64,000 nt of DNA from an uncultured bacterium (GTDB lineage: Bacteria; Omnitrophota; Omnitrophia; Omnitrophales; Aquincolibacteriaceae): positions 256,484 to 320,483 of the forward strand of contig CAYLPP010000001.1 in NCBI GenBank assembly GCA_964385615.1, written 5' to 3'. The translations under genes and the position numbers were made by a program. Positions 8,430 to 24,981 of the stretch are shown here, piece by piece (the first letter of the stretch is position 1; each line of letters opens with the position of its first letter). The notes under the pieces are model-generated. The model did not search any database. It saw nothing but the letters and a program-made list of their open reading frames with translations, and was not told the DNA's origin.

Positions 8430-8852
8430 TCAGATTTTTTTTTCGAGAAGAGAGTGTTCTTCGACTTTTTCCCGGATTTCATCCGGCATCCGGACCGGTT
8501 TAAGCGAAGTGTCAACGAAAGCATGTACCGAAAAACCAGTCGCGATCAATTTCTCGGAGCTTTTTTGAAAAACCCGGTACTCAAAATGAATTGAGGTCCC
8601 GCCCATCTGACTGACGCTGGTGCGGACTACAATCAAATCATCATAAGTGGAGGGCGAGTAGTACTGAGCGCCCGTTTTAATTACAGGGAGAAAGTAGCCT
8701 TTCTTCTCGCATTCCGTGTAAGGCATTCCCAGCGCGCGGAAATACTCCGTCCGCGCCGCTTCAAACCAGGTGAAATAGTTTCCGTAATAGCCGATTCCCA
8801 TTTTGTCGGTATCGCCGTAACGGACACGGTACTCAAAATCAAAATATTTCAC
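8430..8852 (-). CDS. acyl-CoA thioesterase, YbgC/4HBT hotdog family
   Basis: 140 aa; YRVRYGDTD…GYYGNYFTWFE matches the 4HBT/YbgC thioesterase signature. Confidence 0.8.
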   Translation of the reverse strand: MKYFDFEYRVRYGDTDKMGIGYYGNYFTWFEAARTEYFRALGMPYTECEKKGYFLPVIKTGAQYYSPSTYDDLIVVRTSVSQMGGTSIHFEYRVFQKSSEKLIATGFSVHAFVDTSLKPVRMPDEIREKVEEHSLLEKKI

Positions 8853-9268
8853 GCTGTTTCCTTTGTTTTAATAAAAACACGAGCCAGAACCAGGGCTAAC
8901 GCGGTGCCCGTCAAGTCGGCCAGCCAGTCATAGAAGTCACAGGATCTGCCGGGAACATAGAGTTGGCATACCTCCGTCACAACCCCCATGATACTGCCAT
9001 AAAAAAGGGCAAGCACAAAACTCTTACTGCGGAAGAAAGAAGGTTTTGCTTTGCGAAAAGCATGAACCGCGACGAGGGCCAAAATAAAATATTCCGTTCC
9101 GTGAATGACCTTGTCATTAAACTGGGCCAGGAAACCGGGGATTTTGCGCGGAGGCAGAATAGCACTTTGAAAAACGATTAAACTGACGGCGAAGAACGGC
9201 ACCCAGCCCAACAGCCAGCGTTCAAGAAATCCGGATACGGAATCAGAGGGATTCTTTGAGGTGGTCAA
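8849..9268 (-). CDS. VanZ-like membrane protein
   Basis: 139 aa with 4 predicted TM segments and a VanZ-like conserved core. It overlaps the dnaJ 3' end by 26 nt and ybgC by 4 nt. Confidence 0.65.
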
Positions 9269-10376
9269 AAAAACCTTTCTTGTGGCGGGTCTGATTTTTA
9301 CCGCCGCGCGACTTGGCGAATTCCTGCAGAAGCTTTTTTTGTTCTGGAGTTAAATCATCCGGCACTTCAATTTCAACACGCACGTACTGTTCCCCGCGGT
9401 GCTGACCGCGGCCGAGAACAGGAAGACCCTGCTCTTTGATTTTAAAAATTTTACCAGAAGGCGTTCCCGCCGGAATTTTCAGGGAAGTTTCCGCTTCCAG
9501 CGTAGGCACCGGAACATCTCCGCCTAGAGCGGCTGACGTAAAAGGAATCAGAATTTCGCAGTAAAGATCCGCACCGCGGCGCTCGAAAAAAGAATGCTCT
9601 TTCACGCGGACATAGACATAAAGGTCTCCGCGAGGACCGCCTTTGGCGCCGGCCTCACCTTCTCCGGTCACCTTCAGCCGGGTTTCATTCTCAATGCCGG
9701 CGGGCACCTTAATGCTCAGTTTCCGTACCTTTTTAACGCGTCCTTCCCCTCTACAGACGGAACATGGTTTTTCAATTTTCTCACCCTCCCCCTGACAGGT
9801 TGGGCAAGTCCGGCGCATCGTAAAAAATCCCTGGCTGACACGAACTTCTCCATGTCCCCCGCAATCCCGGCAAACGGTTTTCTTGGAACCTTTTTCGGCG
9901 CCTTCACCGGAACATTCAGTGCAGGTTTCACGCCGGGGAATTTCGATCGGAACTTCCTTACCTTTAAGAACTTCTTCCAGCGTCAGCTCAAGGCCCATCT
10001 CCATATCGGACCCTCGCCGGCCCCGGCCGCCCTGACGCCCACGGCCTCCTCCCACGCCGAAGAAATCTTCAAAAATATCGCCAAACACATCCCCAAAACC
10101 GCGGAAACTGTCTTCAAAACCTTCAAAGCCCTGAAAACCGCGCCCGCCTAAAGAATGGCCGAACTGGTCATATTGAGCTCTTTTGGAAGAATCGCTTAAA
10201 ACCGCGTAGGCTTCGGCGGCTTCCTTAAATTTTTCTTCAGCCTGTTTATCCCCCGGATTACGGTCGGGGTGATATTGCATGGCGATTTTGCGGTAGGCTT
10301 TCTTGATGTCGTCGGCGCCGGCGCTGCGGTCGACACCGATAATTTCATAATAATCACGTTTAGCGGCAGATGCCAT
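9243..10376 (-). CDS. dnaJ: chaperone DnaJ
   Basis: 377 aa: J-domain (YYEIIGV…HPDRN), G/F-rich linker, four CxxCxGxG zinc-finger repeats, C-terminal domain. Confidence 0.95.
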
Positions 10377-10392
10377 AATCGAAGCGGAACAA

Positions 10393-10956
10393 TCAGGTCA
10401 GATTGTCCTGCTTTTCCTCCTCTGCGTTCTGATTTTGCGGGGAGGCACCGCGCACGCGGACTTTGGCGGCACGAAGCAGGCGGTCGTGGAGAGAATAGCC
10501 GGGCTCGACTTCTTCGACCACGACGTTTTCTTTCCCCTTGTCATGGACATATCCCACCGCTTCATGTTTATGCGGGTCAAAGTCTTCCCCAATGCTGACA
10601 ATCCGTTTGAGGCCCTGGCTTTTTAAAATTTCCGTCATCTGTTTAAAAACCATCTGAACACCGGTCAGAACAGCTTTAGCGGGACCATCAGCGCCGGCGG
10701 GAATATGCGCCAGCGCGCGTTCAAAATTATCCAAAACCGGAAGCAAATCACGAAGTAACGTTTCCTGGCTGTATTTGACAAATTCTTCCTTGTCGCGCGC
10801 CAGCCTCTTTTTTGCATTCTCAAAATCCGCGGCGGAACGCACGAAACGCTCGCGCATACCTTCAAGTTCAGCAACTTTCGCGCGGAGCTGTTCCAGTTCT
10901 TGCTGAGATTCGGAATTCTCCGGAGAAGGTCCGGAAGTTTGCGGTTCGGAACTCAT
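10393..10956 (-). CDS. grpE: nucleotide exchange factor GrpE
   Basis: 187 aa with a GrpE-like coiled-coil and C-terminal beta domain. It lies directly between hrcA and dnaJ. Confidence 0.9.
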
Positions 10957-11723
10957 GAGAAAAAACGTCCTCCTTGAATCGCGGATTCAACCATCTGACT
11001 CATGCGGGAAATCAGCGGTAAAACGCGGGAATAACGCATCCGGCGAGGCCCGATCAGAGCCAAGGTTCCGGTTTTTCCGCCCTGCGTCTGGTAACGGCCG
11101 GTCACCACCGAACATCCGCGAAAAACAGGGTTCCCGTTTTCCTCGCCGATTTTAACCATAACAGGCTGAGGCGCTAAGGTTCCCTGAAAACATTGCTGGA
11201 GGCTTTGGCGGTCTTCGAAAATTTTCAAAAGCGGTTTAACGGCCGTCATATCCTGAAATTCAGGCTGATCAAGGAGCCGGCTGGATCCCTGCACGTAACA
11301 GCGGGATTTGGCTCCGCGGTCTTCGGGAAGCGTAACCACGCCAACCTGCTCAGATAACGCGGAAAGAACCGCTGAAACCTTTTCAGCTAAATCATCAAGC
11401 TCGCGCGCCGCTTCAAAAAGCTCACGGGCCACCTTGCGTAAGGTATCCGCCGGCAGACTTTCCTGCTGAAGGCTGTTATCCACGTAATAACGGTAACCTT
11501 GATCGGTTGGGACCCGGCCCGCGGAAGTATGGGGATGCGTCAAATAACCGGTTTCTTCCAAAACTCCCATTTCGTGCCTAACTGTGGCAGGAGAATAAGA
11601 CCGGCGGTAAATTTCATTGAAAAGCCCGGTAATCTGCAGGGAGCCTACAGGCTGGGCAGTTTCCACGTGCGTATCAATGACACGGGTCAAAATGGCTTGT
11701 TGTCTGGGAGAAAGCGGCTGCAT
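10953..11723 (-). CDS. hrcA: heat-inducible transcription repressor HrcA (compact, 256 aa)
   Basis: N-terminal wHTH LSPRQQAILTRVI…PVGS and C-terminal GTLALIGPRRMRYSRVLPLI are HrcA hallmarks. It is about 80 aa shorter than typical HrcA. Confidence 0.85.
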   Translation of the reverse strand: MQPLSPRQQAILTRVIDTHVETAQPVGSLQITGLFNEIYRRSYSPATVRHEMGVLEETGYLTHPHTSAGRVPTDQGYRYYVDNSLQQESLPADTLRKVARELFEAARELDDLAEKVSAVLSALSEQVGVVTLPEDRGAKSRCYVQGSSRLLDQPEFQDMTAVKPLLKIFEDRQSLQQCFQGTLAPQPVMVKIGEENGNPVFRGCSVVTGRYQTQGGKTGTLALIGPRRMRYSRVLPLISRMSQMVESAIQGGRFFS

Positions 11724-11772
11724 AGGGGCGTTATGATAGCAAAAAAGAAGGTATTCCTCAACCTGGAAGGAT

Positions 11773-13149
11773 TTAGACTTTGGACAGGGTCATCAAACCC
11801 TGGAGCATGACTTTTTTACGGCGGAAAAGCTCGAGATCATCCCGCCCGATCACCCAGGGCGCGGATTCCTGGGCCAAATTTAATTTCAGGTAGTCAAAAT
11901 TTGAAAATTGATAACTGCGGAGAAGATCCACGAACTCACGCGAAGCGAGGGTCAAAAGATAAATCATATCTTCATGAAGCGCCATCGACTGTTTGCGGTA
12001 ATTGTTTAAATCGCGAAGCACGGCTTCCGTTTCAAGTGAGAAGTAAGGAGTTTGCGGGTTCTCATCGTGATAAACGAAATCCATTTTAGCTTCACGGAAC
12101 GTGTTTTGGATCCGCTCATCCACGGCAATAATCCCCTGAAGGCGGCGCGTCAGCTGCTGGGCCAGAAAAGCTCCCATCTGAACGTCTTCAACCTGAAATT
12201 CCGTTTCCCACTGATCCAGGTTTTCCTGAATCTGAAGCTCTTTGGGAAAAGGGATTTTTTCCATCTGCCCCGAATCATTCTTATATTGAAACGGCACAAT
12301 ACGGGCGATTTTCCCTTCCTCCCCCTGCAGGACAAGGATAAAAAGATACTGAAGTTCCGCGGCTTCCTTCCGGCCGGGAATCGAAGCTTCCGTTTTCGCG
12401 TAGACCAGAACCTGGTTTCTGTTTACCGCCGCACTGCGCATATCAACCACATCCCAGACAGGCTTCTGACTTTCAGGAGCTCCCGCGGGCCGGGCCATGT
12501 CAAAAAAAAGTTTCTGAAGCGCTTCCGTGCTCATAGTGTCCCCAAAATAACGGGCCTGAATCTGAGCGACATCCAGATCTTCAAGATCTTTAAAAAATTT
12601 ATGGACGGGCTTATGCCAGATAACCGCGCGGTTCAGTCTCAGCTCATGGACCACGCGCTTGCGGTATTCATTGCGGGAAATATCCCAGACGCGCACGCGC
12701 TTGATATCATTGACGCATCCGGTCAGCACCAGCTGCATGCCGGTCTTTTCAGAATCCGTGGCTTCAAGCACGTAAAAATCCAGAGGGCGGTCAGTGCTGA
12801 GCAAAACGCGGGAAACAGAAAAGAGAACGTCTTCGACTTTCTCCAGAGCTTCCGGCGAGGGTTCGAAAAGAGTTTCAAGATTGCGGACTTTTCCGGTGAC
12901 CGCGGCTTCCTTGAAATCAGCGGCAAAAAGCTTCTTGAGCGGAAGGTAAACACCGATGGTCTTACCGTTGATTTTGACGTCAACGTCTTCAATGCCGTAT
13001 TCCTTACGGCAGATATCCCCAAGAGCTTCTTTCAGTTTGTCGGCAGGATAGGACTGCGTCATACAGCCGGAGCTCATGACTGAAAGCAAAAGACCGGCTA
13101 TCCAAAATATCCTCTTACCGGAACAAATCAACGACCTGCTTTGCTTCAC
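11773..13149 (-). CDS. lipoprotein of unknown function (458 aa), translationally coupled to the upstream FtsH paralog
   Basis: Signal peptide plus lipobox (LLSVMSSGC). No recognisable domain. The start overlaps the ftsH-like stop by 4 nt (13146-13149). Confidence 0.7.
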   Translation of the reverse strand: MKQSRSLICSGKRIFWIAGLLLSVMSSGCMTQSYPADKLKEALGDICRKEYGIEDVDVKINGKTIGVYLPLKKLFAADFKEAAVTGKVRNLETLFEPSPEALEKVEDVLFSVSRVLLSTDRPLDFYVLEATDSEKTGMQLVLTGCVNDIKRVRVWDISRNEYRKRVVHELRLNRAVIWHKPVHKFFKDLEDLDVAQIQARYFGDTMSTEALQKLFFDMARPAGAPESQKPVWDVVDMRSAAVNRNQVLVYAKTEASIPGRKEAAELQYLFILVLQGEEGKIARIVPFQYKNDSGQMEKIPFPKELQIQENLDQWETEFQVEDVQMGAFLAQQLTRRLQGIIAVDERIQNTFREAKMDFVYHDENPQTPYFSLETEAVLRDLNNYRKQSMALHEDMIYLLTLASREFVDLLRSYQFSNFDYLKLNLAQESAPWVIGRDDLELFRRKKVMLQGLMTLSKV

Positions 13150-14792
13150 TCTGGAGAAACATCCTTTTCCTTCTTGAGGCTGAAACGGCGGGGGTTCATC
13201 TTGCCGTACTCGGCAAAAATCGCTTCGATCTCGTCGTATTCCAGCTCGCCCTTGACCAGGAGTTCGTGGGCGAAGCGCTCAAAAAGCACATTTTCCTTCT
13301 TTAAAAGCTCTTCCACATCCGCCAGGCACTGCTTAAGAATCTTGTCAGTGTCCTGGTTCAGACGGTTTTTGGTTTCGGCTGAAAGCTCAGATTCAGGAAT
13401 GGAGCTGTAGTCCCCAACCAATCCTGAAGGCCCCATACCCAAACGCCAGACCATTGTATGAGCGATTCTCATGGCACCGCGGAAATCGCTGGAAACTCCG
13501 CTGGTGGTCGTGCCGTATTTCACTTTTTCGGCAACATAACCGGCCAGAAAAGATTTGATATCCGCCATCATGACTTCACGGTCCTGAGAAAACCACTCCT
13601 CAATCGCTTGAGGATGAACCACGCCCAGCGTTCCTTTGCGGGGAATGATGGAAGCTTTAAACACGTCATTACGCGGATGGATCAAATAACCGACAATCAA
13701 GTGGCCGGTTTCATGATAGGCCGTCATTTCTTTTTCTTTATCCGTCATGCGCACGCGGTTTTTCACGCCGAGTTCAATGCGCTCAATAGCTTCGGAAATT
13801 TCCTTGAGAGAAACGGTTTCCTTGCCGTTACGCGTGGCAATCAGCGCGGATTCCTTGACGATATTTTCAATTTCCGCGGGAGTTTTCCCAACCGCTTTAC
13901 GGGCGAGGCGGCCGATGTCAATCGACGCTTCGTGATTGACCTTCCCAAGATAAAATTTGAAGAGTGCTTCACGGCCTTCCAGACCAGGTTTGGTGATATA
14001 AACTTTGCGGTCAAACCGGCCGGGGCGAAGCAGCGCGTCATCCAGCACTTCTTCAGACGCGTTCGTCGCGCCGATTACGATCACGTTTTCAGCTTTACCG
14101 CCAAGACCATCCATTTCAACGAGAAGCTGGTTCTGTGTATTATTGCTTTCCGCGCCGCCGAACTGGTTGAAAGTTCTCTTATGGCCCATCGCGTCAAGTT
14201 CGTCGATGAAAATAATGCAGCCGCCGAAACCGTACGCGAGACTTCTAGCTTTCTGGAAAAGAGTGCGGATACGGCTGGAACCCACGCCGACGAAAACTTC
14301 GTTAAATTCGCTGGCCGCCATGGAAAGAAACGGCAGACCGGCTTCCGTCGCGATCGCTTTGGCGAGATAAGTTTTTCCGCAGCCCGGAGGTCCAATCATG
14401 AGAATGCCGCGCAGAATTTTTCCGCCGATTTTTTTAAGCTTAGCGTGATCTTTGATCAGTTGAACAACTTCCCAGCATTCTTCTTTCGCTTCATCAATGC
14501 CGATCACGTCGGAAAATTTAATGCTGACGTCTTTGGCTTTAACGCTTTTCTTGTCAATCTTCGTGAACCCGCCCTTGAGTACCAGCGCGTACATATAAAC
14601 GAAGACCAAGCTGTTGACGATGACAAGCAGAATGGAAATGGGCATCTGAGCGAGTGTGATATTGCGGTAATAGCTTTCCAACGACATCATGCCGTAGATG
14701 GAAAGAACGATCAGGAGAATAACGCCTGAGATCACCAGGATTTTAACCCGGTTATTCAGCCAGTGCATTTTCAAACGGCGTCCGTAATTCAT
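13146..14792 (-). CDS. ftsH: ATP-dependent zinc metalloprotease FtsH paralog with minimal periplasmic loop
   Basis: 548 aa: two N-terminal TM helices separated by only about 20 aa, AAA+ module (GPPGCGKT Walker A, DELD Walker B) and M41 peptidase with the HETGH zinc motif. Confidence 0.85.
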   Translation of the reverse strand: MNYGRRLKMHWLNNRVKILVISGVILLIVLSIYGMMSLESYYRNITLAQMPISILLVIVNSLVFVYMYALVLKGGFTKIDKKSVKAKDVSIKFSDVIGIDEAKEECWEVVQLIKDHAKLKKIGGKILRGILMIGPPGCGKTYLAKAIATEAGLPFLSMAASEFNEVFVGVGSSRIRTLFQKARSLAYGFGGCIIFIDELDAMGHKRTFNQFGGAESNNTQNQLLVEMDGLGGKAENVIVIGATNASEEVLDDALLRPGRFDRKVYITKPGLEGREALFKFYLGKVNHEASIDIGRLARKAVGKTPAEIENIVKESALIATRNGKETVSLKEISEAIERIELGVKNRVRMTDKEKEMTAYHETGHLIVGYLIHPRNDVFKASIIPRKGTLGVVHPQAIEEWFSQDREVMMADIKSFLAGYVAEKVKYGTTTSGVSSDFRGAMRIAHTMVWRLGMGPSGLVGDYSSIPESELSAETKNRLNQDTDKILKQCLADVEELLKKENVLFERFAHELLVKGELEYDEIEAIFAEYGKMNPRRFSLKKEKDVSPE

Positions 14793-14855
14793 TTCATGCT
14801 CCGATCTTATTAAAATACAATAACTTACAAAATGAAGACTGATAATTGTCCGGTA

Positions 14856-14885
14856 ATGATACTCTCTATTTTAAACCCTTGTCAA
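14856..14885 (-). promoter_or_regulatory. putative sigma70 promoter of the ftsH-lipoprotein-hrcA-grpE-dnaJ unit
   Basis: Minus strand reads TTGACA-18 nt-TATCAT about 60 nt upstream of the ftsH start. No CIRCE inverted repeat was found nearby. Confidence 0.35.
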
Positions 14886-14916: not shown

Positions 14917-15318
14917 TCAGGTCTTGGATGGGGTTGTTCCGGAGAAACTGTCTTCATCCTCTTCTGACCACCAGCTTTCCTCATCATCAACGGCTTTTTT
15001 GGCCGATTCTTGACCCGCTCCCCCCTGAGATTCCCAGAGTCCCTGCCCGGTTTCTTCGGGCGCTTCCGCCTGGGGCTCCGTCTTCTTATTGACGGGAGCT
15101 TTGACCATAAACTGGTTGCTTCCTCCTCCGTAAAATGTCATGGAAGGGCTGGGAGCTCCCTTTTTGCCGTCTTTTTCCTCTTCAAGCTTCTGCTGGAGAG
15201 AAATAGGGCTGGTCTGGGCCTCCGTCACCGTCAGCACATCTTCCTTCTTGCGAATACTCCCCATCGCCAGGAAAGCGATTAAAACAACCACCCCCAGCTT
15301 GAGAAACTTGCCGTTCAT
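14917..15318 (-). CDS. hypothetical membrane-anchored protein with acidic Glu/Asp/Trp-rich C-terminus
   Basis: ORF 14917..15357; the likely start is the internal MNGKFLKLGVVVLIAFLAMGS, which is a single TM or signal anchor. No recognisable domain. Confidence 0.5.
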   Translation of the reverse strand: MNGKFLKLGVVVLIAFLAMGSIRKKEDVLTVTEAQTSPISLQQKLEEEKDGKKGAPSPSMTFYGGGSNQFMVKAPVNKKTEPQAEAPEETGQGLWESQGGAGQESAKKAVDDEESWWSEEDEDSFSGTTPSKT

Positions 15319-15366
15319 AACCCCTCCAGGAAGGTATTCAAAAGATACATTCCTCACAGCAAAAGA

Positions 15367-18168
15367 TCAAACCACACCCGGTTTGACGGAAACTTCCTGT
15401 AGATGCTTCAATAAAAATTGCCCCGTATAAGACCCTTTAACTTTCAGAATCCCCTCTAAGTCTCCCGCGTAAATCAGTTCCCCGCCTTTGTCCCCGCCTT
15501 CCGGCCCCAGATCAACCACCGCATCCGCAGAGCGGATGACTTCCATATTGTGCTCAATGATGACCAGAGAATGGCCCCGGTTCAGGAGTTCATCAAAAGC
15601 TTCCATGAGGTAGTGAATATCGTGATAGTGAAGGCCCGTAGTCGGTTCATCAAAAAGGTAAAGAATATGTCCGTCTTTTTTTTCCGACATTTCAAAAGCC
15701 AGCTTCATGCGCTGAGCTTCCCCGCCGGAAAGAGTCGTCGCTGACTGACCAAGGCGTAAATAACCCAGCCCAACTTTTCTGAGAATGGAAAATTTCTGGA
15801 AAAGATTTTTTTCATTTTTAAAAAATTCGGACGCGTCATCAACCGTCATGGAGAGCACATCATCCACATTTCTGCCTTGATAGGTAACTTCCAGAATTTC
15901 CGGTTTAAATCTTTTCCCCCGGCATTGCTCGCAGGTCATGTAAATATCCGCCAGGAAATGCATTTCCACCTTGATCCGGCCGTCGCCTTTGCAGGCAGGA
16001 CACCGGCCTCCGTCCACGTTGAAAGAAAAATGGCCGGGCTCAAACCCTTCCCGCTTGGCCTGACCCGTCGCCGCGAAAAGTTTTCGAATGTCATCAAAAG
16101 CGTTCAGATACGTCGCGGGATTGGAACGGGGCGTGCGTCCGATCGGCGACTGATCCACGACGACCATTTCATCAATCTGCTCAAACCCTTCGATTTTTTT
16201 AACCTGCCCCAGATCCTGAACGGGGCGGCCGCGGTAGCGCAGGTACTGTTTATGAAGAATATCGTAAAGCAGTGTGCTTTTCCCTGAGCCGGAGACACCG
16301 GTAATCACGACGAAAGACTCCAGCGGAATAGAAACAGAAATATTTTTAAGATTATTCTGAACCGCGCCTTGGATCTTGATGAATTTCTGTTTTTTGGGTT
16401 TATTTCCGGAGCGTCTCTTGACCTCCATCCTCCCGGATAAATATTGGCCTGTCAAAGACTCCCGGCTTTTTTTAATCTGTGAAACGCTTCCCTGAAAAAG
16501 AATCCGCCCTCCGCCTTCACCGCCCGAAGGTCCCAGATCGATAATTTCATCCGCGGCTTCCATCATCGCGCGGTCATGTTCAACCACCACCACGGTGTTG
16601 CCAAGTTCACGAAGACGGTGAAGAAGGCTGATCAGAAGATGATTGTCCCGCTCGTGAAGACCCACACTGGGTTCGTCCAGAACATAAAGAGTATCGACAA
16701 GCGCTGAACCCAGCGAGGTCGCCAAATGAATCCGCTGAACTTCTCCGCCTGAAAGCGTGCGCGATAAACGGCCTAAGCTGAGATAACTGAGCCCGACATC
16801 ATTTAAGAACCGCACGCGGCGCTGGAGCTCCAGATAAACGGGTTCGGCTTTTTCTTTTTCAGCCGCGGAAAGCTTCATGCCGTCAAAAAAATCCCGGACG
16901 GCTTCCAGGCTCATCAGCTGAAGCTCATGGATGTTTTTCCCGCGCACCAAAACCCAAAGTGATTCGGGTTTTAACCGCGTTTCCGCGCAGGTTTTGCAGG
17001 GCTCAAAACAGCGGTACTTCGCCAGGAAAATACGGACATGCATTTTGTAGGTTTTCTTTTCGAGGTATTTAAAAAACTCCTGAACGCTGAAATAATCGCC
17101 TTCTTTCTGATAGGGTTTCCCGGGCTCCCCCGTAAGAATCCAGTCACGATGGGTTTTGGAAAGTTTTTTCCATGGAACATCCATGGGGATTTTCTTCTGC
17201 TTGCAGAATACGGCGAGCCTTTTAGCTTCCCACTCTGAACTGGGTTTGGTCCAGGGCTCAATCGCGCCTTCCGCCAAGGTTTTATTTTCGTCCGGAATGA
17301 CCAGGTTCCAGTCCAGGGTAATGACCCGTCCGAAGCCCTGGCAGACCGGGCAGGCTCCCAGCGGACTATTGAAAGAAAAGAGATTTGGGACAGGTTCCCG
17401 GAAAGTTTTTCCGCAAGAAAAACAGCCTAGTTTTTCAGAGAACTCAAGCAGTTTACCGCCCGCGAAAACCTGGGCTTCGCCTTTGCCGTAGCGGAAGGCC
17501 AGTTCTAACGAATCCATAAGGCGTTTGCGGGACGCAGGTGAAACCTCAACGCTGTCCACAACAACGCGCACATCTTTGATTTTTTTCAGAGAAAGCAGTT
17601 CTTCAGCCGTAAGAATTTTCCCGCCATTAAAAAATTCCGTGAAACCCTGGCGCTCGAGCTCCGGGAGAAATTCTTTAAGATGTTTGGCCGCTTTTTCGCC
17701 AACCGCGACCTTGTAAAGGATCAGGGTTTTCTGACCCGCGTATTTTTCCCGAAGAAATTCCGAAACGCTTTCAGGACGGCTGGCCCGGACTTCAACCTTG
17801 CAATCTGGGCAAAAGGTCAGGCCGATCCGGGCAAAGAAAACCCGGAGATAATCGTTAATTTCCGTTTGGGTTCCAACCGTGGAGCGGGCGTTGGTGATCA
17901 CGTTCTTGGCTTCAATCGCGATCGCGGGAGGGATGCCGGAAACGGAGTCCGCGTCCGGCTTTTCCATGCGCTCCAGAAACTGGCGCGCGTAAGAAGAAAG
18001 GGATTCCACATAGCGGCGCTGGCCCTCAGCATAAAGCGTGTCGAAAGCAAGCGAAGACTTACCTGAACCTGAGACACCAGTTACCACGTAAAGCTTCCGG
18101 TGAGGCAGAATCAGATCAAAATTCTTGAGATTATGGGTTTTGACACCCTGAAGAATAATCGCGTCCAT
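15367..18168 (-). CDS. uvrA: excinuclease ABC subunit A
   Basis: 933 aa with two ABC ATPase modules (GVSGSGKSS twice), zinc-finger insertions and a canonical N-terminus MDAIILQGVKTHNLKN. Confidence 0.95.
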   Translation of the reverse strand: MDAIILQGVKTHNLKNFDLILPHRKLYVVTGVSGSGKSSLAFDTLYAEGQRRYVESLSSYARQFLERMEKPDADSVSGIPPAIAIEAKNVITNARSTVGTQTEINDYLRVFFARIGLTFCPDCKVEVRASRPESVSEFLREKYAGQKTLILYKVAVGEKAAKHLKEFLPELERQGFTEFFNGGKILTAEELLSLKKIKDVRVVVDSVEVSPASRKRLMDSLELAFRYGKGEAQVFAGGKLLEFSEKLGCFSCGKTFREPVPNLFSFNSPLGACPVCQGFGRVITLDWNLVIPDENKTLAEGAIEPWTKPSSEWEAKRLAVFCKQKKIPMDVPWKKLSKTHRDWILTGEPGKPYQKEGDYFSVQEFFKYLEKKTYKMHVRIFLAKYRCFEPCKTCAETRLKPESLWVLVRGKNIHELQLMSLEAVRDFFDGMKLSAAEKEKAEPVYLELQRRVRFLNDVGLSYLSLGRLSRTLSGGEVQRIHLATSLGSALVDTLYVLDEPSVGLHERDNHLLISLLHRLRELGNTVVVVEHDRAMMEAADEIIDLGPSGGEGGGRILFQGSVSQIKKSRESLTGQYLSGRMEVKRRSGNKPKKQKFIKIQGAVQNNLKNISVSIPLESFVVITGVSGSGKSTLLYDILHKQYLRYRGRPVQDLGQVKKIEGFEQIDEMVVVDQSPIGRTPRSNPATYLNAFDDIRKLFAATGQAKREGFEPGHFSFNVDGGRCPACKGDGRIKVEMHFLADIYMTCEQCRGKRFKPEILEVTYQGRNVDDVLSMTVDDASEFFKNEKNLFQKFSILRKVGLGYLRLGQSATTLSGGEAQRMKLAFEMSEKKDGHILYLFDEPTTGLHYHDIHYLMEAFDELLNRGHSLVIIEHNMEVIRSADAVVDLGPEGGDKGGELIYAGDLEGILKVKGSYTGQFLLKHLQEVSVKPGVV

Positions 18169-18229: not shown

Positions 18230-18643
18230 TTAAAGTTCCGAACTGACGTACTTCTCGATTTTCTTGAGCATCGCGCCCCCGCCGAGAACATGGCGGGATT
18301 CCGGAGCAATCTCAACCGTTGTAATTTTCCGGGTAAGCCTTTTAACTACGAACGTCATCAACCGGCGGTCAGAATCATCCGGGCGCGTCCAATCCAGATT
18401 GCGGACCCTAATCGTTCCCTTTTCTTTTTCGGTAATATCAAGCTCCCAGCCTTCCATGTTACCCACCGCTTCAAGAGTGCGGAGGTAAACCAGGTCATAC
18501 GGAAGTTCATATTGAAGAACTTCATCATTCGCGGGATAAATAATGCTCTTCTGAATAGACGATTTACAGCCCGCGGTGAAAAACAGAATGCTCACGAGAG
18601 AATAAAAGAAAAATGCTTTCGACTTCATAAATAGTCTCCTCAC
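18230..18643 (-). CDS. small lipoprotein (137 aa), last gene of the OM-protein operon
   Basis: Signal peptide with lipobox FFTAGC. The start codon overlaps the stop of the 1555-aa protein (TAATG). No recognisable domain. Confidence 0.6.
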   Translation of the reverse strand: MRRLFMKSKAFFFYSLVSILFFTAGCKSSIQKSIIYPANDEVLQYELPYDLVYLRTLEAVGNMEGWELDITEKEKGTIRVRNLDWTRPDDSDRRLMTFVVKRLTRKITTVEIAPESRHVLGGGAMLKKIEKYVSSEL

Positions 18644-21600
18644 TAAATCTTCCCGGTCAAGCGGACAAAAGGGCCATGACTGTTGATATTACTGCTCTTA
18701 CGTAGATCATCGTCAAAATCCGTAAAATTATAACCCACCCCGAGGCGGACATAATCATAAAGTTCACGGTCAACCTCAACCAGGGCGCCGTGCTTGAGGG
18801 TCTGAGCCGCGTCAAACTGCCATAGCGCCCGGTATTCCAGAGCCACGTCCCACTTGCGGGTCACATGAAAATTGAACCGGTTGACCCACAGAAAATTATG
18901 CAGCACCAGCTGGTTGGTCAGACTGCCGTCAAGCAGGGAGCGCTTATAGGCCAGTTTCTCGACCAATCCCAAATTGCGGTGAATTTCGTAAGCCAGGTCA
19001 ATCGCCAGAATGTGAGCCGTCTCATCCACGTTGGCTCCCTGATAGATACCGCCGTAAAACTGCGCATCATTGGCAATATCTTTCAGGTAGGTATAACGGG
19101 TAAGGATATTCAGGCGGTCATTATCCACAGGCCGGTACGCGGCACCCATGCTCATCTCCGTAAAGCCCGCCTGTAAATTATCAGGATCTATAAAATCGGT
19201 TTTGCCGTAATCAAATTTTCCAAGCGCGCTGATATCCTGCGTTACTTTGTGTTCAACCAGATTACGGCTGACCCATTGAGAAAGACGGGGCGTATCCTGA
19301 TCGCGCCGGTACTCCAAAGAAACACGGGCTTTGGTTTTTTTGTAGTTATTGTAGGCGACACCGCCGGTAATTGTATTGAAACTGTTTGAGCGGATGTATC
19401 CAGCCTGCGCGGTATCATCCAGCAGGCGGGTCGTGGAATTTTTCAAATGCCGGCGCTCGCCTCTTAACTCGAAACTCCACTGATCATTGATCTGATTTTG
19501 ATAACCCATTGCGTCGGTCGCGTACCCGTCAACGGAAGAGTAAGAAGTGTACTGGCGTTCCGAATAGAGCCGGGATTTCTCAGTTAGAGAGAAAGAATCC
19601 CCGAGAGTCGTGGTTAAAAGCGGTAACCCGGTACCCAAATCAAGCATACGCATATTGGCATACGAACGGGTTGAACCGCGGTACTGTTCGATCCCGAACT
19701 GAGTCGAATCCCCGATATTGCCAAACATCTGTTCCACATAGGCGAACATATGGTTCACAAGCTCATAACGGACACCGGCGCCGTACTGGCGGTTAGGTTT
19801 ACCGTCAAAAGTCGTCTGCACTTTCACATAAGGCAGGATCCTGTCGTTAAAGCGCTTCCCGATTTTTCCGGTCAGAGCGTTTTTATTCTGATCTTCATAG
19901 AGAAGCGTCGGAAGAAGATTGACCGGAGGGAAAGCCGCTACGCTTCTGCGGTATTCAACTTCTCCCAGCCAGTTACCGTCATCGTAAACCAGCTCGCCGG
20001 TATGATTGCGGTAACTGCTGAACGGCGCCGAAAGCCCGGTCGTTTCAAGCGGAAGAGCGCGGTTTTCAGCCGCTGCATTATCAAAACGGTAGCGGGCATA
20101 AATCGAATCCGTGAATTTATATTTCGCGGCAAATCCGTATTTATGGGTTCCCGCCTGGCTTTGCGTGTTGCTGGTTGAAAATCCGGGATGAATCCCCTGA
20201 ATGTACCCGGAAGTTTCAAGATTCTTGACCGGTTTGGACTCCGCCTTCAAAAGATAAGCCTTATCGGGAACGGTCCTTCGCGCCTGCGGAAGCCGTGTAT
20301 CACCGAAAGTCAAACCGCCGTTATAAGAAACTCCCGACTCCGTCTGTTGGTTCTTGGATTCCGCGTATTCCATCGTCACTTTGGTGTTACGGCCCATTTT
20401 GATGGTGCCGTCAATTCCACGCACATCGTAATCCAGATTCTGACGCTTTTCTTTAACCGCGGTCGCGCCAATGCGGATATGATCGCCCATGTGCGTGTAA
20501 CCGCGAAGTCCGCCGTTATTGTTATCAAAAGCCGAAGGCCCCGCGTCATATTCGTAATCCACAATTAAATAAAGCGGGGCGCCGTCAAGAATATCGGTTG
20601 AACTCAAGGTGTCGGAAGCCGTTACGGAAGAAAGCGGACGGGACAAAAGAATACGGCCTTCCCGGTAATCAATCTCATAATCCTTCCCCTCAACGAGATC
20701 ATAGCTCTGAAGAACCATATCCTGGATTTTATCGCGTACTTCCACCCGGATTTTCTCGCTTCCTTCAATGATGTTGCGGAAACGGACATAGTAAAGCGAT
20801 CCGCCGGTTGCCGCGAACTCGTTATGATCCGGGAGGTTCTGCGTGCGCGCTCCGAAAAATTTAATTCCCCGCTTCGGATCACCGTAAGGCGTACTGTCGA
20901 GCGTTTCAAAACTCCCCTGAAGCCCCGTAAGTGTCCGGTTGTAAGTGGCTAATTCCGTATCGGTAAACCCGGTTTTAAAACTTCCGTATTTCAGATGAGC
21001 CTTGTCCTGTTCAACGACGAGAAAAAACCGGCTGGCCGTGTCGCGCGCCTCATAATCAATCGAGGAAGCATCTCCGTAAACCGGATAGTACTGATCGGGA
21101 TCCAGATTGGTAAAAAGAGCTGACCGGCGGTCATCGGTATCATAATGGGACTTAACAATAAACTTCCCTTTAATCTTCCCTTTCAAATAATAGGAAAGCC
21201 GTCCCTCTTCATAAAAACCGTCTTTAAAGGTATCTTCCTGAGCCACGGTCTGAAGGTTGCCGTCCGTGAAATTAATCCCCATTTGCTCTTCGCCTAAAGC
21301 TGTCATAAAAAACGTGCTGTCTTTGACCAGGATGGACTTCTGAACCGTTGTCGTTTCTCCTTCGGGGCTGGCCGTGCTGACTTGAATCTGCTTTTGGCCG
21401 GGCGCAGTGTAAATTTGCGTTTCAAAAAGACCGTCAGGCTGAACTTCAATTGTGTACGAATTCACGCGTACCTTGTTGCCCGGCTTGGTCCGGCCCTGAA
21501 CCCGGATCGTGGGCTTGGCGATCAAAGGAATACTGCGGCGCCCGTCTTTAAAAATATTAAAATCTCCGATGGGAGGAATTTCCTGGATTTTTTTCTCGGC

Positions 21601-23310
21601 GTCTTTATCAAGCTTGGAAATAACCCGGAAAAACTGAAGCGGGGTCCAATCCTGGTGCCCCTGGGCATCCGTCACTTTAAATTGATAAGAATAAACTCCC
21701 GGCTTCACCATAAGACCGTTTTCCGCTTTTCCGGGCCAAATGACTTCATCCGGCGGAGCGGAAACACCGAAACCAGTCCAAACTTCCGCGCCGGATTCAT
21801 CCCGAATTTCCAGGTACCATCCCTTGACCATATCAGGATAATTAATTTTGAATCTAAAAGAAGGCTCCTTTTCCAAGACTCCGATCCCTATCTTCAGCAG
21901 ATCCGGCTCGATCTGAACACCCAGAGTCGGCTGTGCCGTATCCAGGCCTTGAGTCACGGAAACCGACAAATCTTTTTCAAAAGCGGCGGGAAGCTGCGAC
22001 GGCGGAATCCAGACAGCGAAATTGGCTTTATTTAAAATACCCGGCGTTGTTTTAACGAGAAAGGATTCTTCCGTTACAAACTGAGACCCCTCCGGAAGAC
22101 TGTGACCGTCAACTTTAATCACGTGCCGGCCCGGCTTAACCGCGGGGATGTGATACATACCGTTTTCGTCTGTCGTGACAACAATTCCCTCTTCAGTCGC
22201 GATCTGCACGAAAGGAATTCCTTTTTCACCGCCGGTGCATTTTTCCGCTGTCCCGACAATCACGCAATCATCCTGAACTCCGTTTTTATTGAGGTCATTA
22301 AAAACCTTACCGATAATGGTTCCTTCGTCGAAAACAGGATCCAGTTCAGGCCGGACAATCACTTCAACAGGAGTTGTCACCCCGTTCGAGTGCCTTACGA
22401 AAATGGTCAGAACATAACTCTTGCCGGCAACGGCCGCGGATGAAAGCACAACCGGAATCCCGAAGACCACGTCTTCACCGGCGTTCAAATTGAGGCCGAA
22501 AATAACCGAACCTTCGCGATTGCCAAGCGGCCGGCCGTCAAACTTAGCTTGGTCAGCTTTGACAATCAGACCATCCTGAGGCTCAATGACCAAATCGCCG
22601 GATTGCGTAATGGAAGTCTGGTTGTGAAGCTGAACGGTGATTAATTTCAGCTGACCGGGTTTGGAGCTGGAATTCACCGGGGAAGCGTTGACGGTGATGG
22701 GATCGCTTGAAAAGGTTCCGATCATATTATCGAAATCCGCGATAAATGTTCCACCGACATCCCCTGCCGTGGACGGCTGAATACGAATCACGAAAGTCAC
22801 CTGCCCGGTACCGGCCGGAGCCGTACCGCTGACAGAGTATCTTGAGAAGGTTGAAGTCACCGCGGTCGGAAGTGAAAAGGTATCCGCGCTGATAAAAACG
22901 CCCGCGGCAGTCTGGTACTCCAGACGAATCTGCGCGACTTCAGCACCGTTATTGGCAACCACCCGGCCCAAACCGCTGAAAGTGACAACTTGGCCGACGC
23001 TGGCACCTGTGACCGTCTGAAAGGTGAAAACTCCGCCAAAACCGGCATTGAGCGTTGAAGGTTCTGAAAGACGCATATAGCTGGAACCTTCAGGCGCGTC
23101 GGAAGCCGTGCGCTGTGAAATACCGCGGTTGGATTCACTGTTCCAGTTCGTCTGCCCGTTGGTATTGCCCAAAGCATTTTCAAAGTTGGGGTTTTGAAGA
23201 ACGTTAGCCGCGGCATACGCTTCCACCGTGGAAAAGAAAATACCCGCAGCCAGCGTAAAAAATACGGCCGTCTTCACTGCCATTGGGTTTAACCGCGGTC
23301 TTTTATCCAT
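18643..23310 (-). CDS. giant secreted/outer-membrane multidomain protein (1555 aa): signal peptide, CBM4_9-like N-terminal module, SdrD-B/CarboxypepD_reg-like and Ig-like repeats, about 900-aa aromatic-rich beta-rich C-terminal region
   Basis: Cleavable signal peptide (…FSTVEAYAAAN). NPNFENALGNTNGQTNW resembles a carbohydrate-binding CBM4_9 start. GKVFNDLNKNGVQDD…TTDENGMYHI is an SdrD-B-type fold. The C-terminal two-thirds is Y/F/W/G-rich with alternating hydrophobicity but lacks a terminal Phe. Confidence 0.8.
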   Translation of the reverse strand: MDKRPRLNPMAVKTAVFFTLAAGIFFSTVEAYAAANVLQNPNFENALGNTNGQTNWNSESNRGISQRTASDAPEGSSYMRLSEPSTLNAGFGGVFTFQTVTGASVGQVVTFSGLGRVVANNGAEVAQIRLEYQTAAGVFISADTFSLPTAVTSTFSRYSVSGTAPAGTGQVTFVIRIQPSTAGDVGGTFIADFDNMIGTFSSDPITVNASPVNSSSKPGQLKLITVQLHNQTSITQSGDLVIEPQDGLIVKADQAKFDGRPLGNREGSVIFGLNLNAGEDVVFGIPVVLSSAAVAGKSYVLTIFVRHSNGVTTPVEVIVRPELDPVFDEGTIIGKVFNDLNKNGVQDDCVIVGTAEKCTGGEKGIPFVQIATEEGIVVTTDENGMYHIPAVKPGRHVIKVDGHSLPEGSQFVTEESFLVKTTPGILNKANFAVWIPPSQLPAAFEKDLSVSVTQGLDTAQPTLGVQIEPDLLKIGIGVLEKEPSFRFKINYPDMVKGWYLEIRDESGAEVWTGFGVSAPPDEVIWPGKAENGLMVKPGVYSYQFKVTDAQGHQDWTPLQFFRVISKLDKDAEKKIQEIPPIGDFNIFKDGRRSIPLIAKPTIRVQGRTKPGNKVRVNSYTIEVQPDGLFETQIYTAPGQKQIQVSTASPEGETTTVQKSILVKDSTFFMTALGEEQMGINFTDGNLQTVAQEDTFKDGFYEEGRLSYYLKGKIKGKFIVKSHYDTDDRRSALFTNLDPDQYYPVYGDASSIDYEARDTASRFFLVVEQDKAHLKYGSFKTGFTDTELATYNRTLTGLQGSFETLDSTPYGDPKRGIKFFGARTQNLPDHNEFAATGGSLYYVRFRNIIEGSEKIRVEVRDKIQDMVLQSYDLVEGKDYEIDYREGRILLSRPLSSVTASDTLSSTDILDGAPLYLIVDYEYDAGPSAFDNNNGGLRGYTHMGDHIRIGATAVKEKRQNLDYDVRGIDGTIKMGRNTKVTMEYAESKNQQTESGVSYNGGLTFGDTRLPQARRTVPDKAYLLKAESKPVKNLETSGYIQGIHPGFSTSNTQSQAGTHKYGFAAKYKFTDSIYARYRFDNAAAENRALPLETTGLSAPFSSYRNHTGELVYDDGNWLGEVEYRRSVAAFPPVNLLPTLLYEDQNKNALTGKIGKRFNDRILPYVKVQTTFDGKPNRQYGAGVRYELVNHMFAYVEQMFGNIGDSTQFGIEQYRGSTRSYANMRMLDLGTGLPLLTTTLGDSFSLTEKSRLYSERQYTSYSSVDGYATDAMGYQNQINDQWSFELRGERRHLKNSTTRLLDDTAQAGYIRSNSFNTITGGVAYNNYKKTKARVSLEYRRDQDTPRLSQWVSRNLVEHKVTQDISALGKFDYGKTDFIDPDNLQAGFTEMSMGAAYRPVDNDRLNILTRYTYLKDIANDAQFYGGIYQGANVDETAHILAIDLAYEIHRNLGLVEKLAYKRSLLDGSLTNQLVLHNFLWVNRFNFHVTRKWDVALEYRALWQFDAAQTLKHGALVEVDRELYDYVRLGVGYNFTDFDDDLRKSSNINSHGPFVRLTGKI

Positions 23311-23312
23311 AA

Positions 23313-24893
23313 TTAGAAGCGCCTGCTCGACCAGTTAACGCCGAATCTCAAATCCCAATCGGGATGCGTCTGGGAATCATTGACCCCTTGTTTGGTGCTG
23401 TAAGCTCCGCCCACACCGACATACTCAACAAAAAGTTTGGTCTTATACAGCCATTCATTATCGCGCCATTTATAAGTGCGGAAAGGCATCCAGCGAATAC
23501 CGCCGGCCAGGAACCAGCGGTTCTGGTAAGGAAAAGAAAATTCGCTGTTGTTGACGTGCTCCAGACGGGCATAAGGCATGGCAACGAATTCATCGTTAAT
23601 AGGGTTGGGGGGAAGCGGAATGCCCGGCATGGTCAACCCAAGCGTGATTGAAGAGTTAAAAATGAAAGCGTTAAAATCATCTTCGATTGAAAAGCCCGTA
23701 CGGTCAAACGTGTAACTGCCGAAATACTCACCCCAGGTGTAAAGACGCAGGTAATCCTGCCAGGTTGAAGGCGCGACAGCATCCGCGATCGCCGGCAAAT
23801 CCACTCCCCATTCATAGAAAATATTGACGCCGGCAATAAGGTTGTAGTTGCGGCTGCCCGTAATGTCATCGCGCAGGTTAATGCGGGTGCCATACTGGAC
23901 AAACATCCGGTAACTCTTAACAAAATCCAGGAGATGCAAACCGAAGGGCGCGTAATTGCTCAAAAAAGTATTATTAGCCAGAGGGCGGTATTCAAGACCC
24001 GTAAAGATCTGCATATTTTGTTTGAATCCAATGCTGTTGGACTCAAGCGCGGCGGTAATTTCAATATACGGGTCAATCGTATTTAACGGAGCGCGGATCC
24101 CCTTAAACACAAACCGGTTGGTCCAGAAACCTACCTGCGAATGGAATTTTTCAGATTCAAGGTTGGTTAAACGGTAGGAAGATTCCCCGAAAGACTGCCA
24201 TACGAATTTCTCGCCGACAGGCGTTCCCTGAAACGGCCCGAAAAGCTCGTTGCCGATATCCAGCTGATCCATGAATTTGAGCGCGATCTGCTCTTCCTTT
24301 TCAAACTGCTCGCGGGTCTGCGGAGTTTCAATCACGGTGTCAGAAACCGGAACAAAAACCTTGTCGGCTTCCTGAACCGATTTCATGAAATCACCGCCCT
24401 TGGATTCGATAACCGTGCGGGACATGGTCACTTGAGCTTCAGCGGCCTGACTGGAGTCAAAAGCTTTATGCCCGACCCAGTAAACCATTTTTTCATTACC
24501 AACACCCGATGGAATCGCAAGGCGCTTAATCATCACACCCTGAAAATCCGCCGTCTGAATTTTTTCCTTCACCCATTTCTGAACATCTTCAAGACTGTTC
24601 AAATTGGGGATGTAACGGCTCTTGACCGCGTTAGGTCCGAAATCGGTAACTACGGAATATTGGGTATTGAGTTCCCGGTCGGGAGTTTGGATGAAAACAA
24701 GACCGCCGACACTGGCTGTCTTATATTGAAGACGCTGATCGCTGGGAAGATAGAATTCCTGCGCGAATAAATTGGATTGGGGCGCGGCGGGTTCAGCAGC
24801 CGGAACCGCGGACGGCGCTTTAACCTTAACTTCTTCAGCAAAGGCACTGCCGGACATCAGCGCCAGACTGACTATTAAAACCCAGAAACGCAT
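23313..24893 (-). CDS. outer-membrane beta-barrel protein (about 526 aa mature), first gene of the OM operon
   Basis: Signal peptide MRFWVLIVSLALMSGSAFA. The C-terminal half has an amphipathic beta-strand pattern ending …VNWSSRRF (C-terminal Phe, the OMP sorting signal). The ORF extends to 24956, but the signal peptide starts at the internal Met. There is a 2-nt gap to the giant gene. Confidence 0.75.
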   Translation of the reverse strand: MRFWVLIVSLALMSGSAFAEEVKVKAPSAVPAAEPAAPQSNLFAQEFYLPSDQRLQYKTASVGGLVFIQTPDRELNTQYSVVTDFGPNAVKSRYIPNLNSLEDVQKWVKEKIQTADFQGVMIKRLAIPSGVGNEKMVYWVGHKAFDSSQAAEAQVTMSRTVIESKGGDFMKSVQEADKVFVPVSDTVIETPQTREQFEKEEQIALKFMDQLDIGNELFGPFQGTPVGEKFVWQSFGESSYRLTNLESEKFHSQVGFWTNRFVFKGIRAPLNTIDPYIEITAALESNSIGFKQNMQIFTGLEYRPLANNTFLSNYAPFGLHLLDFVKSYRMFVQYGTRINLRDDITGSRNYNLIAGVNIFYEWGVDLPAIADAVAPSTWQDYLRLYTWGEYFGSYTFDRTGFSIEDDFNAFIFNSSITLGLTMPGIPLPPNPINDEFVAMPYARLEHVNNSEFSFPYQNRWFLAGGIRWMPFRTYKWRDNEWLYKTKLFVEYVGVGGAYSTKQGVNDSQTHPDWDLRFGVNWSSRRF

Positions 24894-24981
24894 GCCGTTC
24901 CTTCCAGCGTTCGTCTTTCTAATGAGTTGAAAGAAGTTAACAAAAAAATTGAGCATTCATCATTGAACGCTCAACAACCTT

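Follow-up and report, generated by a model that had tools for sequence, protein, structure and literature searches.

A short-loop FtsH-like protease and a lipoprotein as its putative periplasmic partner: a conserved gene pair of Omnitrophota

We analysed a 64 kb stretch of DNA from Candidatus Omnitrophota (hereafter the window), in which the gene for an FtsH-like AAA+/M41 zinc protease of 548 amino acids (aa; 13146..14792, minus strand) is followed directly by the gene for a 458-aa lipoprotein (11773..13149, minus strand, GTG start). In our reading the two genes make up a conserved module whose lipoprotein would act as periplasmic partner of the protease, with the neighbouring heat-shock genes hrcA, grpE and dnaJ belonging to a separate unit; we give this reading a probability of about 60%. 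In bacteria and organelles, FtsH serves universally as the membrane-bound protease of quality control, and the role of its periplasmic domain is still poorly defined. A lineage that combines an invariant periplasmic loop of ~15 residues with an obligately linked lipoprotein is a natural experiment on the outer part of FtsH. The module is a variant of the known FtsH machine paired with an uncharacterised, lineage-restricted family; no prior account of it was found in the literature searched, and searches for FtsH of Omnitrophota or Velamenicoccus, or for FtsH lacking a periplasmic domain, gave nothing relevant.

The protease and lipoprotein genes stay together in near and distant relatives

To compare loci, one genome per species was scanned for the lipoprotein, which gave 46 loci; those with a name were from Omnitrophota, with one labelled Planctomycetia. 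In tblastn with the proteins of the window, the order uvrA, small open reading frame (ORF), ftsH-like, lipoprotein, hrcA, grpE, dnaJ, vanZ was found wherever the contig was long enough, and the FtsH-like gene lay directly upstream of the lipoprotein gene in all loci with enough upstream sequence (40/40), with the lipoproteins sharing 37-79% identity with that of the window. Six distant homologues of the lipoprotein, detected by profile at E values of 1e-24 to 1e-49 (L050, L051, L052, L053, L054 and L057), each have a different neighbourhood that contains neither uvrA nor hrcA, and again an AAA+M41 gene lacking the periplasmic domain was present immediately upstream in each (6/6). In one of these (L054:3580-7985), the pair sits between the genes for the N- and C-terminal subunits of a split transketolase, which shows that it relocates as a unit. 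One contig was suspected of carrying two modules, which turned out to come from two different samples.

The two genes are also closely juxtaposed. In the window, the TGA stop codon of the FtsH-like gene and the GTG start codon of the lipoprotein gene (13149) overlap as GTGA, in line with the overlap reported in an earlier, sequence-only note on this DNA (the original prediction). At most loci the two codons touch or overlap, with 4-nucleotide (nt) overlaps recurring in several loci including the window. The codon for the lipobox cysteine lies at a median of 79 nt from the FtsH stop (52 loci), and therefore the signal peptide begins at or over this stop. Upstream of the pair we saw the sigma-70-like promoter candidate that had been proposed before (TTGACA-N18-TATCAT, 11/12 consensus matches; 14856..14885, minus strand). 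A TTGNNN-N16-18-TANNNT motif, mostly TTGACA...TATAGT and mostly 90-105 nt upstream of the ftsH-like start, was present in 26 of 43 related loci.

The FtsH-like protein has a complete set of catalytic motifs and a ~15-residue loop

The FtsH-like protein matched Pfam AAA (135 bits) and Peptidase_M41 (114 bits, cutoff 29.9 bits). Its AAA+ region contains Walker A (GPPGCGKT, residues 134-141), FVGVG (167-171), Walker B (IIFIDELD, 193-200) and RPGRFDR motifs, while the M41 domain contains the zinc-binding motif HETGH (residues 360-364; 13701..13715, minus strand) and, downstream, GVSSD, which matches the third-ligand region. HE[STA]GH was present in 40/40 full-length relatives. On the basis of these motifs the catalytic machinery is intact, in agreement with the complete AAA+ and M41 modules described originally.

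The hydropathy profile places two transmembrane (TM) helices at residues ~17-35 and ~51-72, connected by a loop of ~15 residues (residues ~36-50, SLESYYRNITLAQMP; 14643..14687, minus strand). The near-absence of a periplasmic domain, already proposed, was thus borne out, with the spacing between the helices corrected from ~20 to ~15 residues. No match to PF06480, the ~70-residue periplasmic N-domain, was detected in the protein. TIGR01241 gave 441 bits, below its equivalog cutoff of 600 bits, with the alignment beginning at model position 109, past the periplasmic domain, and NF008004 gave 321 bits against a cutoff of 1008 bits. The best PDB matches were FtsH cytoplasmic regions (~300 bits). 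All of the best 120 matches listed in a search with the protein belong to the short-loop family, for which the NCBI name is only 'AAA family ATPase'. With canonical FtsH (TIGR01241; E. coli, T. maritima, Thermus, Aquifex) the Omnitrophota protein shares the two-TM N-terminal anchor, the AAA+ module (Walker A/B, FVG pore loop, arginine fingers) and the M41 HEXXH motif. In contrast to the ~70-residue periplasmic N-domain of the canonical proteins, however, it has only the invariant ~15-residue loop, and a dedicated lipoprotein gene always follows.

In a tally of 41 loci, the loop sequence SLES[YF]YRNITLA[QT][ML]P was nearly invariant while the adjoining TM residues varied, and only the most distant members departed from it. 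The protein as a whole is likewise well conserved, with 67-94% identity to the window protein across loci, compared to 55-83% for UvrA and 56-72% for DnaJ.

We also noted rearranged forms of the protease. Some Omnitrophota encode a tandem fusion of ~930-1000 aa, TM1-loop-TM2-(AAA-M41)-(AAA-M41) (P0155, P0161 and L057:2741-5521), which would form a hexamer-equivalent ring from three chains. For the L057 fusion, the TM hairpin is encoded in frame upstream (2500-2740) and was left out of the database gene call; a short lipoprotein homologue of 289 aa with the lipobox LLSGC follows. At another locus (L037:479-1953), the FtsH-like match ends after ~235 residues and is separated from the lipoprotein gene by 755 nt, perhaps because the gene is a pseudogene or the assembly is faulty.

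The lipoprotein belongs to a family restricted to Omnitrophota

The N-terminus of the lipoprotein (MKQSR...LLLSVMSSG-C) is basic and is followed by a hydrophobic stretch preceding Gly28-Cys29 (Cys29 codon, 13063-13065). In an alignment of 29 homologues, Cys29 was invariant and Gly28 nearly so (at least 90%), and both were also seen in distant members. The signal peptide therefore carries a genuine lipobox, as the SSGC assignment of the original prediction had it, and lipid modification is predicted. The public gene call (P0001, 429 aa) begins at Met30, past the lipobox cysteine, and thereby conceals that the protein has a signal peptide and that its gene overlaps the FtsH stop; the call is a start-site error.

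As had been stated for the lipoprotein, no recognisable domain was found: neither Pfam nor NCBIfam gave a match, and at E<=1 Pfam still matched none of the 29 members. The description of the protein as an orphan was inaccurate, however, because a profile search of 1.84 billion representative proteins returned 438 family members at E<=0.001 (representatives at 50% identity). The names returned were only those of metagenome-assembled genomes of Omnitrophota and of 'PVC group bacterium', and the family is lineage-restricted to Omnitrophota. It spans diverged full-length forms as well as short forms of ~290-340 aa, apparently without most of the middle domain described below. The original prediction had named homologues with an assigned function, or a lipoprotein not conserved beside ftsH, as findings that would speak against it; among the family members found none has an assigned function, and the two genes were paired in every relative examined. 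The pairing is a first functional lead for an unannotated family of several hundred members.

A confident AlphaFold2 model built from the alignment (predicted local distance difference test score, pLDDT, 84; predicted template modelling score, pTM, 0.76) suggests, by our reading of its secondary structure, three domains, of which the N-terminal one has a small, conserved alpha/beta fold, the middle one is NTF2-like and the C-terminal one is again alpha/beta. The modelled N-domain superposes on the small alpha-beta-beta-alpha-beta folds of CamS sex-pheromone lipoproteins, PrgK/EscJ, FliF, SpoIIIAH and BON domains. EscJ and PrgK are lipoproteins too, located at the outer face of the inner membrane. 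Membership of the NTF2-like/SnoaL superfamily is not seen at the sequence level (no Pfam match), and this domain is missing from the short members. As modelled, the folds are generic periplasmic ones, none of which gives a function. An internal duplication giving rise to the N- and C-domains was considered and rejected, since hhalign detected nothing significant between them (probability <1%).

A proposed partnership and its alternatives

The retention of the pair while its surroundings changed, together with the translational coupling and the invariant loop, makes a functional partnership the best reading of these genes, and the partnership is probably physical. The original proposal of a partner or adaptor supplied in trans agrees with this reading and is supported by comparative genomics: the gene anatomy, the motifs, the lipobox, the strict adjacency (40/40 and 6/6 loci) and the lineage restriction of the family are shown, while a physical interaction, an inner-membrane location and a regulatory role are what we infer. 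We propose that the lipoprotein is held at the periplasmic face of the inner membrane, where it would dock on the FtsH hexamer, probably via the invariant loop (SLESYYRNITLAQ). It could in this way take on, in trans, the part played in other bacteria by the FtsH N-domain and by partners such as HflK/C, namely regulation or substrate selection from the periplasmic side. The idea of a membrane-anchored, periplasm-facing partner that modulates FtsH is shared with the FtsH-HflK/HflC system. Unlike HflK/C, the lipoprotein lacks a Band_7/SPFH domain and matches them neither in sequence nor in fold, and its predicted anchor is a lipid-modified cysteine rather than a TM helix. HflK/C bind the periplasmic domain of FtsH, which is absent from the Omnitrophota protein.

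Several observations weigh against this partnership. In a few loci (L036, L037) the two genes are separated by gaps of 200-750 nt. The short family members seem to be without most of the NTF2-like domain, and hence the core role cannot depend on this domain. Among the 29 homologues, the position that follows the lipobox cysteine varies, so that an inner- or outer-membrane location cannot be read from the sequence. Finally, the case for an interaction is an indirect one, from comparative genomics.

A more far-reaching and tentative version, which we consider doubtful as it stands, is that Omnitrophota have a split FtsH machine. Here the protease would keep only a docking loop, and the co-translated lipoprotein would constitute the whole periplasmic part, gating or regulating substrate access and possibly oligomerising via an N-domain resembling those of ring-building proteins. 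If true, this would be a previously undescribed architecture for a universal membrane quality-control protease.

The strongest alternative, to which we assign a little less than even odds, concerns the protease: it could be the sole housekeeping FtsH of a short-loop lineage rather than a paralog, with the lipoprotein a lineage-specific accessory of an essential FtsH. A partnership would fit this as well, but the reading of a specialised paralog would fall away. The alternative is consistent with the protein being more conserved than UvrA and DnaJ at these loci, with catalytic motifs that are all intact, with the occurrence of the module in every Omnitrophota lineage sampled and with the lack of a second ftsH in the 64 kb window, although the window is a small part of the genome. 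The high conservation fits a paralog equally well, however, and both the TIGR01241 score (441 of the required 600 bits) and the name 'AAA family ATPase' are more typical of a diverged paralog. Since the score falls short of the threshold and the family has diversified, with tandem (AAA-M41)x2 forms as one example, we place the paralog slightly ahead. In the supplementary KEGG Orthology table of PMC10066038, K03798, K03705 and K04043 are present in some genome groups, with values that cannot be read as copy numbers.

It is also conceivable, if unlikely, that the lipoprotein acts not as a structural stand-in but as a sensor of the envelope or of lipids, relaying signals to FtsH, with the NTF2-like domain binding a lipid ligand. 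The analogy here is with E. coli, where YejM/LapB tune the degradation of LpxC by FtsH. Against this, short members without most of the NTF2-like domain keep the pairing, no ligand-binding residues were identified in the domain, and proximity to lpxK was a single case. Least probable is that the genes are neighbours by operon economy only, with the lipoprotein serving the envelope in a way unconnected to FtsH: the interaction is indeed deduced from sequence comparison, the folds are generic and some intergenic gaps are large, but adjacency and orientation are kept down to a profile E value of 1e-24 and across at least seven neighbourhoods in which all other neighbours have changed, chance or economy rarely keeps a pair for so long, and stop/start overlaps recur.

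The heat-shock genes form a separate unit

The original prediction had the FtsH-like/lipoprotein pair head the hrcA-grpE-dnaJ genes from one promoter. This does not hold, since a second promoter candidate lies directly upstream of hrcA and the pair is found elsewhere without heat-shock genes. The distance from the lipoprotein stop to the hrcA start is 49 nt, matching the ~50 nt given before. Within this gap (11724-11772, minus strand), a promoter scan detected TTGAGG-N17-TATCAT with a TG extension (11733..11761, minus strand). The conserved promoter reads TTGAG-N17-TGCTATCAT, and a TTGAG...TTTTTGCTATCAT motif recurs at this position, often with small variations, in the short-HrcA loci (see below). 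Both the scan and the conservation of the motif thus suggest that hrcA has its own promoter, and for this reason we do not regard the pair as the head of the heat-shock genes. The -10 box (TGCTATCAT) ends 9 nt before the ATG, the spacer that follows is C-rich and no Shine-Dalgarno sequence is present; because of this short distance and the missing Shine-Dalgarno sequence, the hrcA mRNA is probably leaderless. The other short-HrcA loci show the same layout. No terminator-like site was found between the two units, so read-through from one into the other is possible. In distant lineages, the pair has no heat-shock genes nearby. Collectively, the region consists of two separate units, the FtsH-like/lipoprotein module and hrcA-grpE-dnaJ(-vanZ).

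In the second unit, hrcA (10953..11723, minus strand) overlaps at its stop with grpE (10393..10956, minus strand; Pfam GrpE, 158 bits), which is followed directly by dnaJ (9243..10376, minus strand; Pfam DnaJ, DnaJ_CXXCXGXG and DnaJ_C). The succession of grpE and dnaJ with no dnaK between them, noted originally, was seen in every related locus of the same class with both genes in view, and the missing dnaK is therefore an arrangement of the lineage and not a peculiarity of this genome. Since dnaK is absent from the operon and from the 64 kb window, it must be located elsewhere in the genome.

Short HrcA proteins and the loss of CIRCE

The HrcA protein of the window is a short form of 256 aa, as reported earlier. 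It matches TIGR00331 in two stretches (211 bits, cutoff 197) and Pfam HrcA (104 bits), and the structure of T. maritima HrcA (PDB 1STZ) matches residues 3-94, the N-terminal winged helix-turn-helix (wHTH), and weakly the C-terminus. Alignment with the 344-349-aa HrcA of other Omnitrophota revealed an internal gap of ~90 columns, corresponding to a loss of ~90 residues that we take to be the inserted dimerising domain of 1STZ. HrcA is 250-265 aa long in ~25 loci including the window.

The original report of no CIRCE (controlling inverted repeat of chaperone expression) near hrcA proved correct for the whole window: the element (TTAGCACTC-N9-GAGTGCTAA) was not found in the 64 kb at up to 3 mismatches, nor in the ~25 short-HrcA loci at up to 5 mismatches. 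In 10 of the 13 loci with a 344-349-aa HrcA, however, CIRCE with 0-3 mismatches lies between the -10 box and the hrcA start. Short HrcA and missing CIRCE thus go together, as clade history. The correlation is not absolute, because two or three loci with full-length HrcA lack CIRCE at hrcA, which counts against the association; two of them (L026 and L043) have none at up to 5 mismatches anywhere in ~13 kb. The hrcA-grpE-dnaJ order is shared with the Bacillus-type HrcA-CIRCE system (hrcA-grpE-dnaK-dnaJ), to which the passing TIGR00331 score and the canonical CIRCE of relatives with full-length HrcA also correspond; the differences are the absence of dnaK from the operon in every related same-class locus and, in the clade of the window, the loss of ~90 HrcA residues and of CIRCE. 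One relative (L015:7378-7460, JBFHCO010000033.1) has no hrcA, and grpE-dnaJ come directly after the lipoprotein gene, as would be expected if the HrcA system is decaying in the short-HrcA clade.

Because the operator before hrcA has been lost in the clade of the window, autoregulation of hrcA via CIRCE would be gone. The short HrcA may still be active at other promoters such as groESL, given that its winged-helix region stays well conserved. Alternatively, the short form could be a decaying, non-functional regulator rather than a repressor moved to a new operator, a possibility supported by the lost internal residues, the loss of CIRCE at its own promoter in all short-HrcA loci and the deletion of hrcA in L015. 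We nevertheless regard it as doubtful: the wHTH is well conserved and the ORF intact in the ~25 loci (39-79% identity), as purifying selection would have it, the TIGR00331 cutoff is still passed, and CIRCE may persist at groESL or dnaK. HrcA proteins of ~260-276 aa in Campylobacterota are functional repressors, which also counts against decay. The joint loss of the internal domain of HrcA and of CIRCE provides a clean example of repressor/operator decay within one phylum.

Genomic context

In the direction of transcription, all on the minus strand, the locus comprises uvrA (15367-18168), a 146-aa ORF (14917..15357), the FtsH-like and lipoprotein genes, hrcA, grpE, dnaJ and a gene for a VanZ-like membrane protein (8849..9268). 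The gene identities are supported by Pfam and NCBIfam, with no match for the 458-aa and 146-aa proteins. The VanZ-like gene (Pfam VanZ) is the conserved last gene of the cluster and is syntenic in many loci. The 146-aa protein, encoded between uvrA and the ftsH-like gene, has a hydrophobic N-terminal segment and an acidic tail. Loci of the same class encode it at 33-52% identity, and the distant contexts lack it; we count it as context, outside the FtsH-like/lipoprotein module.

Upstream of uvrA (18230-24956, minus strand) are genes for proteins of 1555 and 547 aa and a putative lipoprotein of 137 aa, with essentially no Pfam matches. The large protein and uvrA are syntenic in relatives, where the former measures ~1533-1549 aa, and SdrD_B Pfam hits are on record for two of them (L001 and L055). 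The window also carries rpsB-tsf-pyrH-frr, an arginine biosynthesis cluster, and dap and leu genes. Throughout the window (1-64000), the minus strand holds nearly all plausible genes and the GC skew is negative all along, a pattern that fits one replichore of a compact genome.

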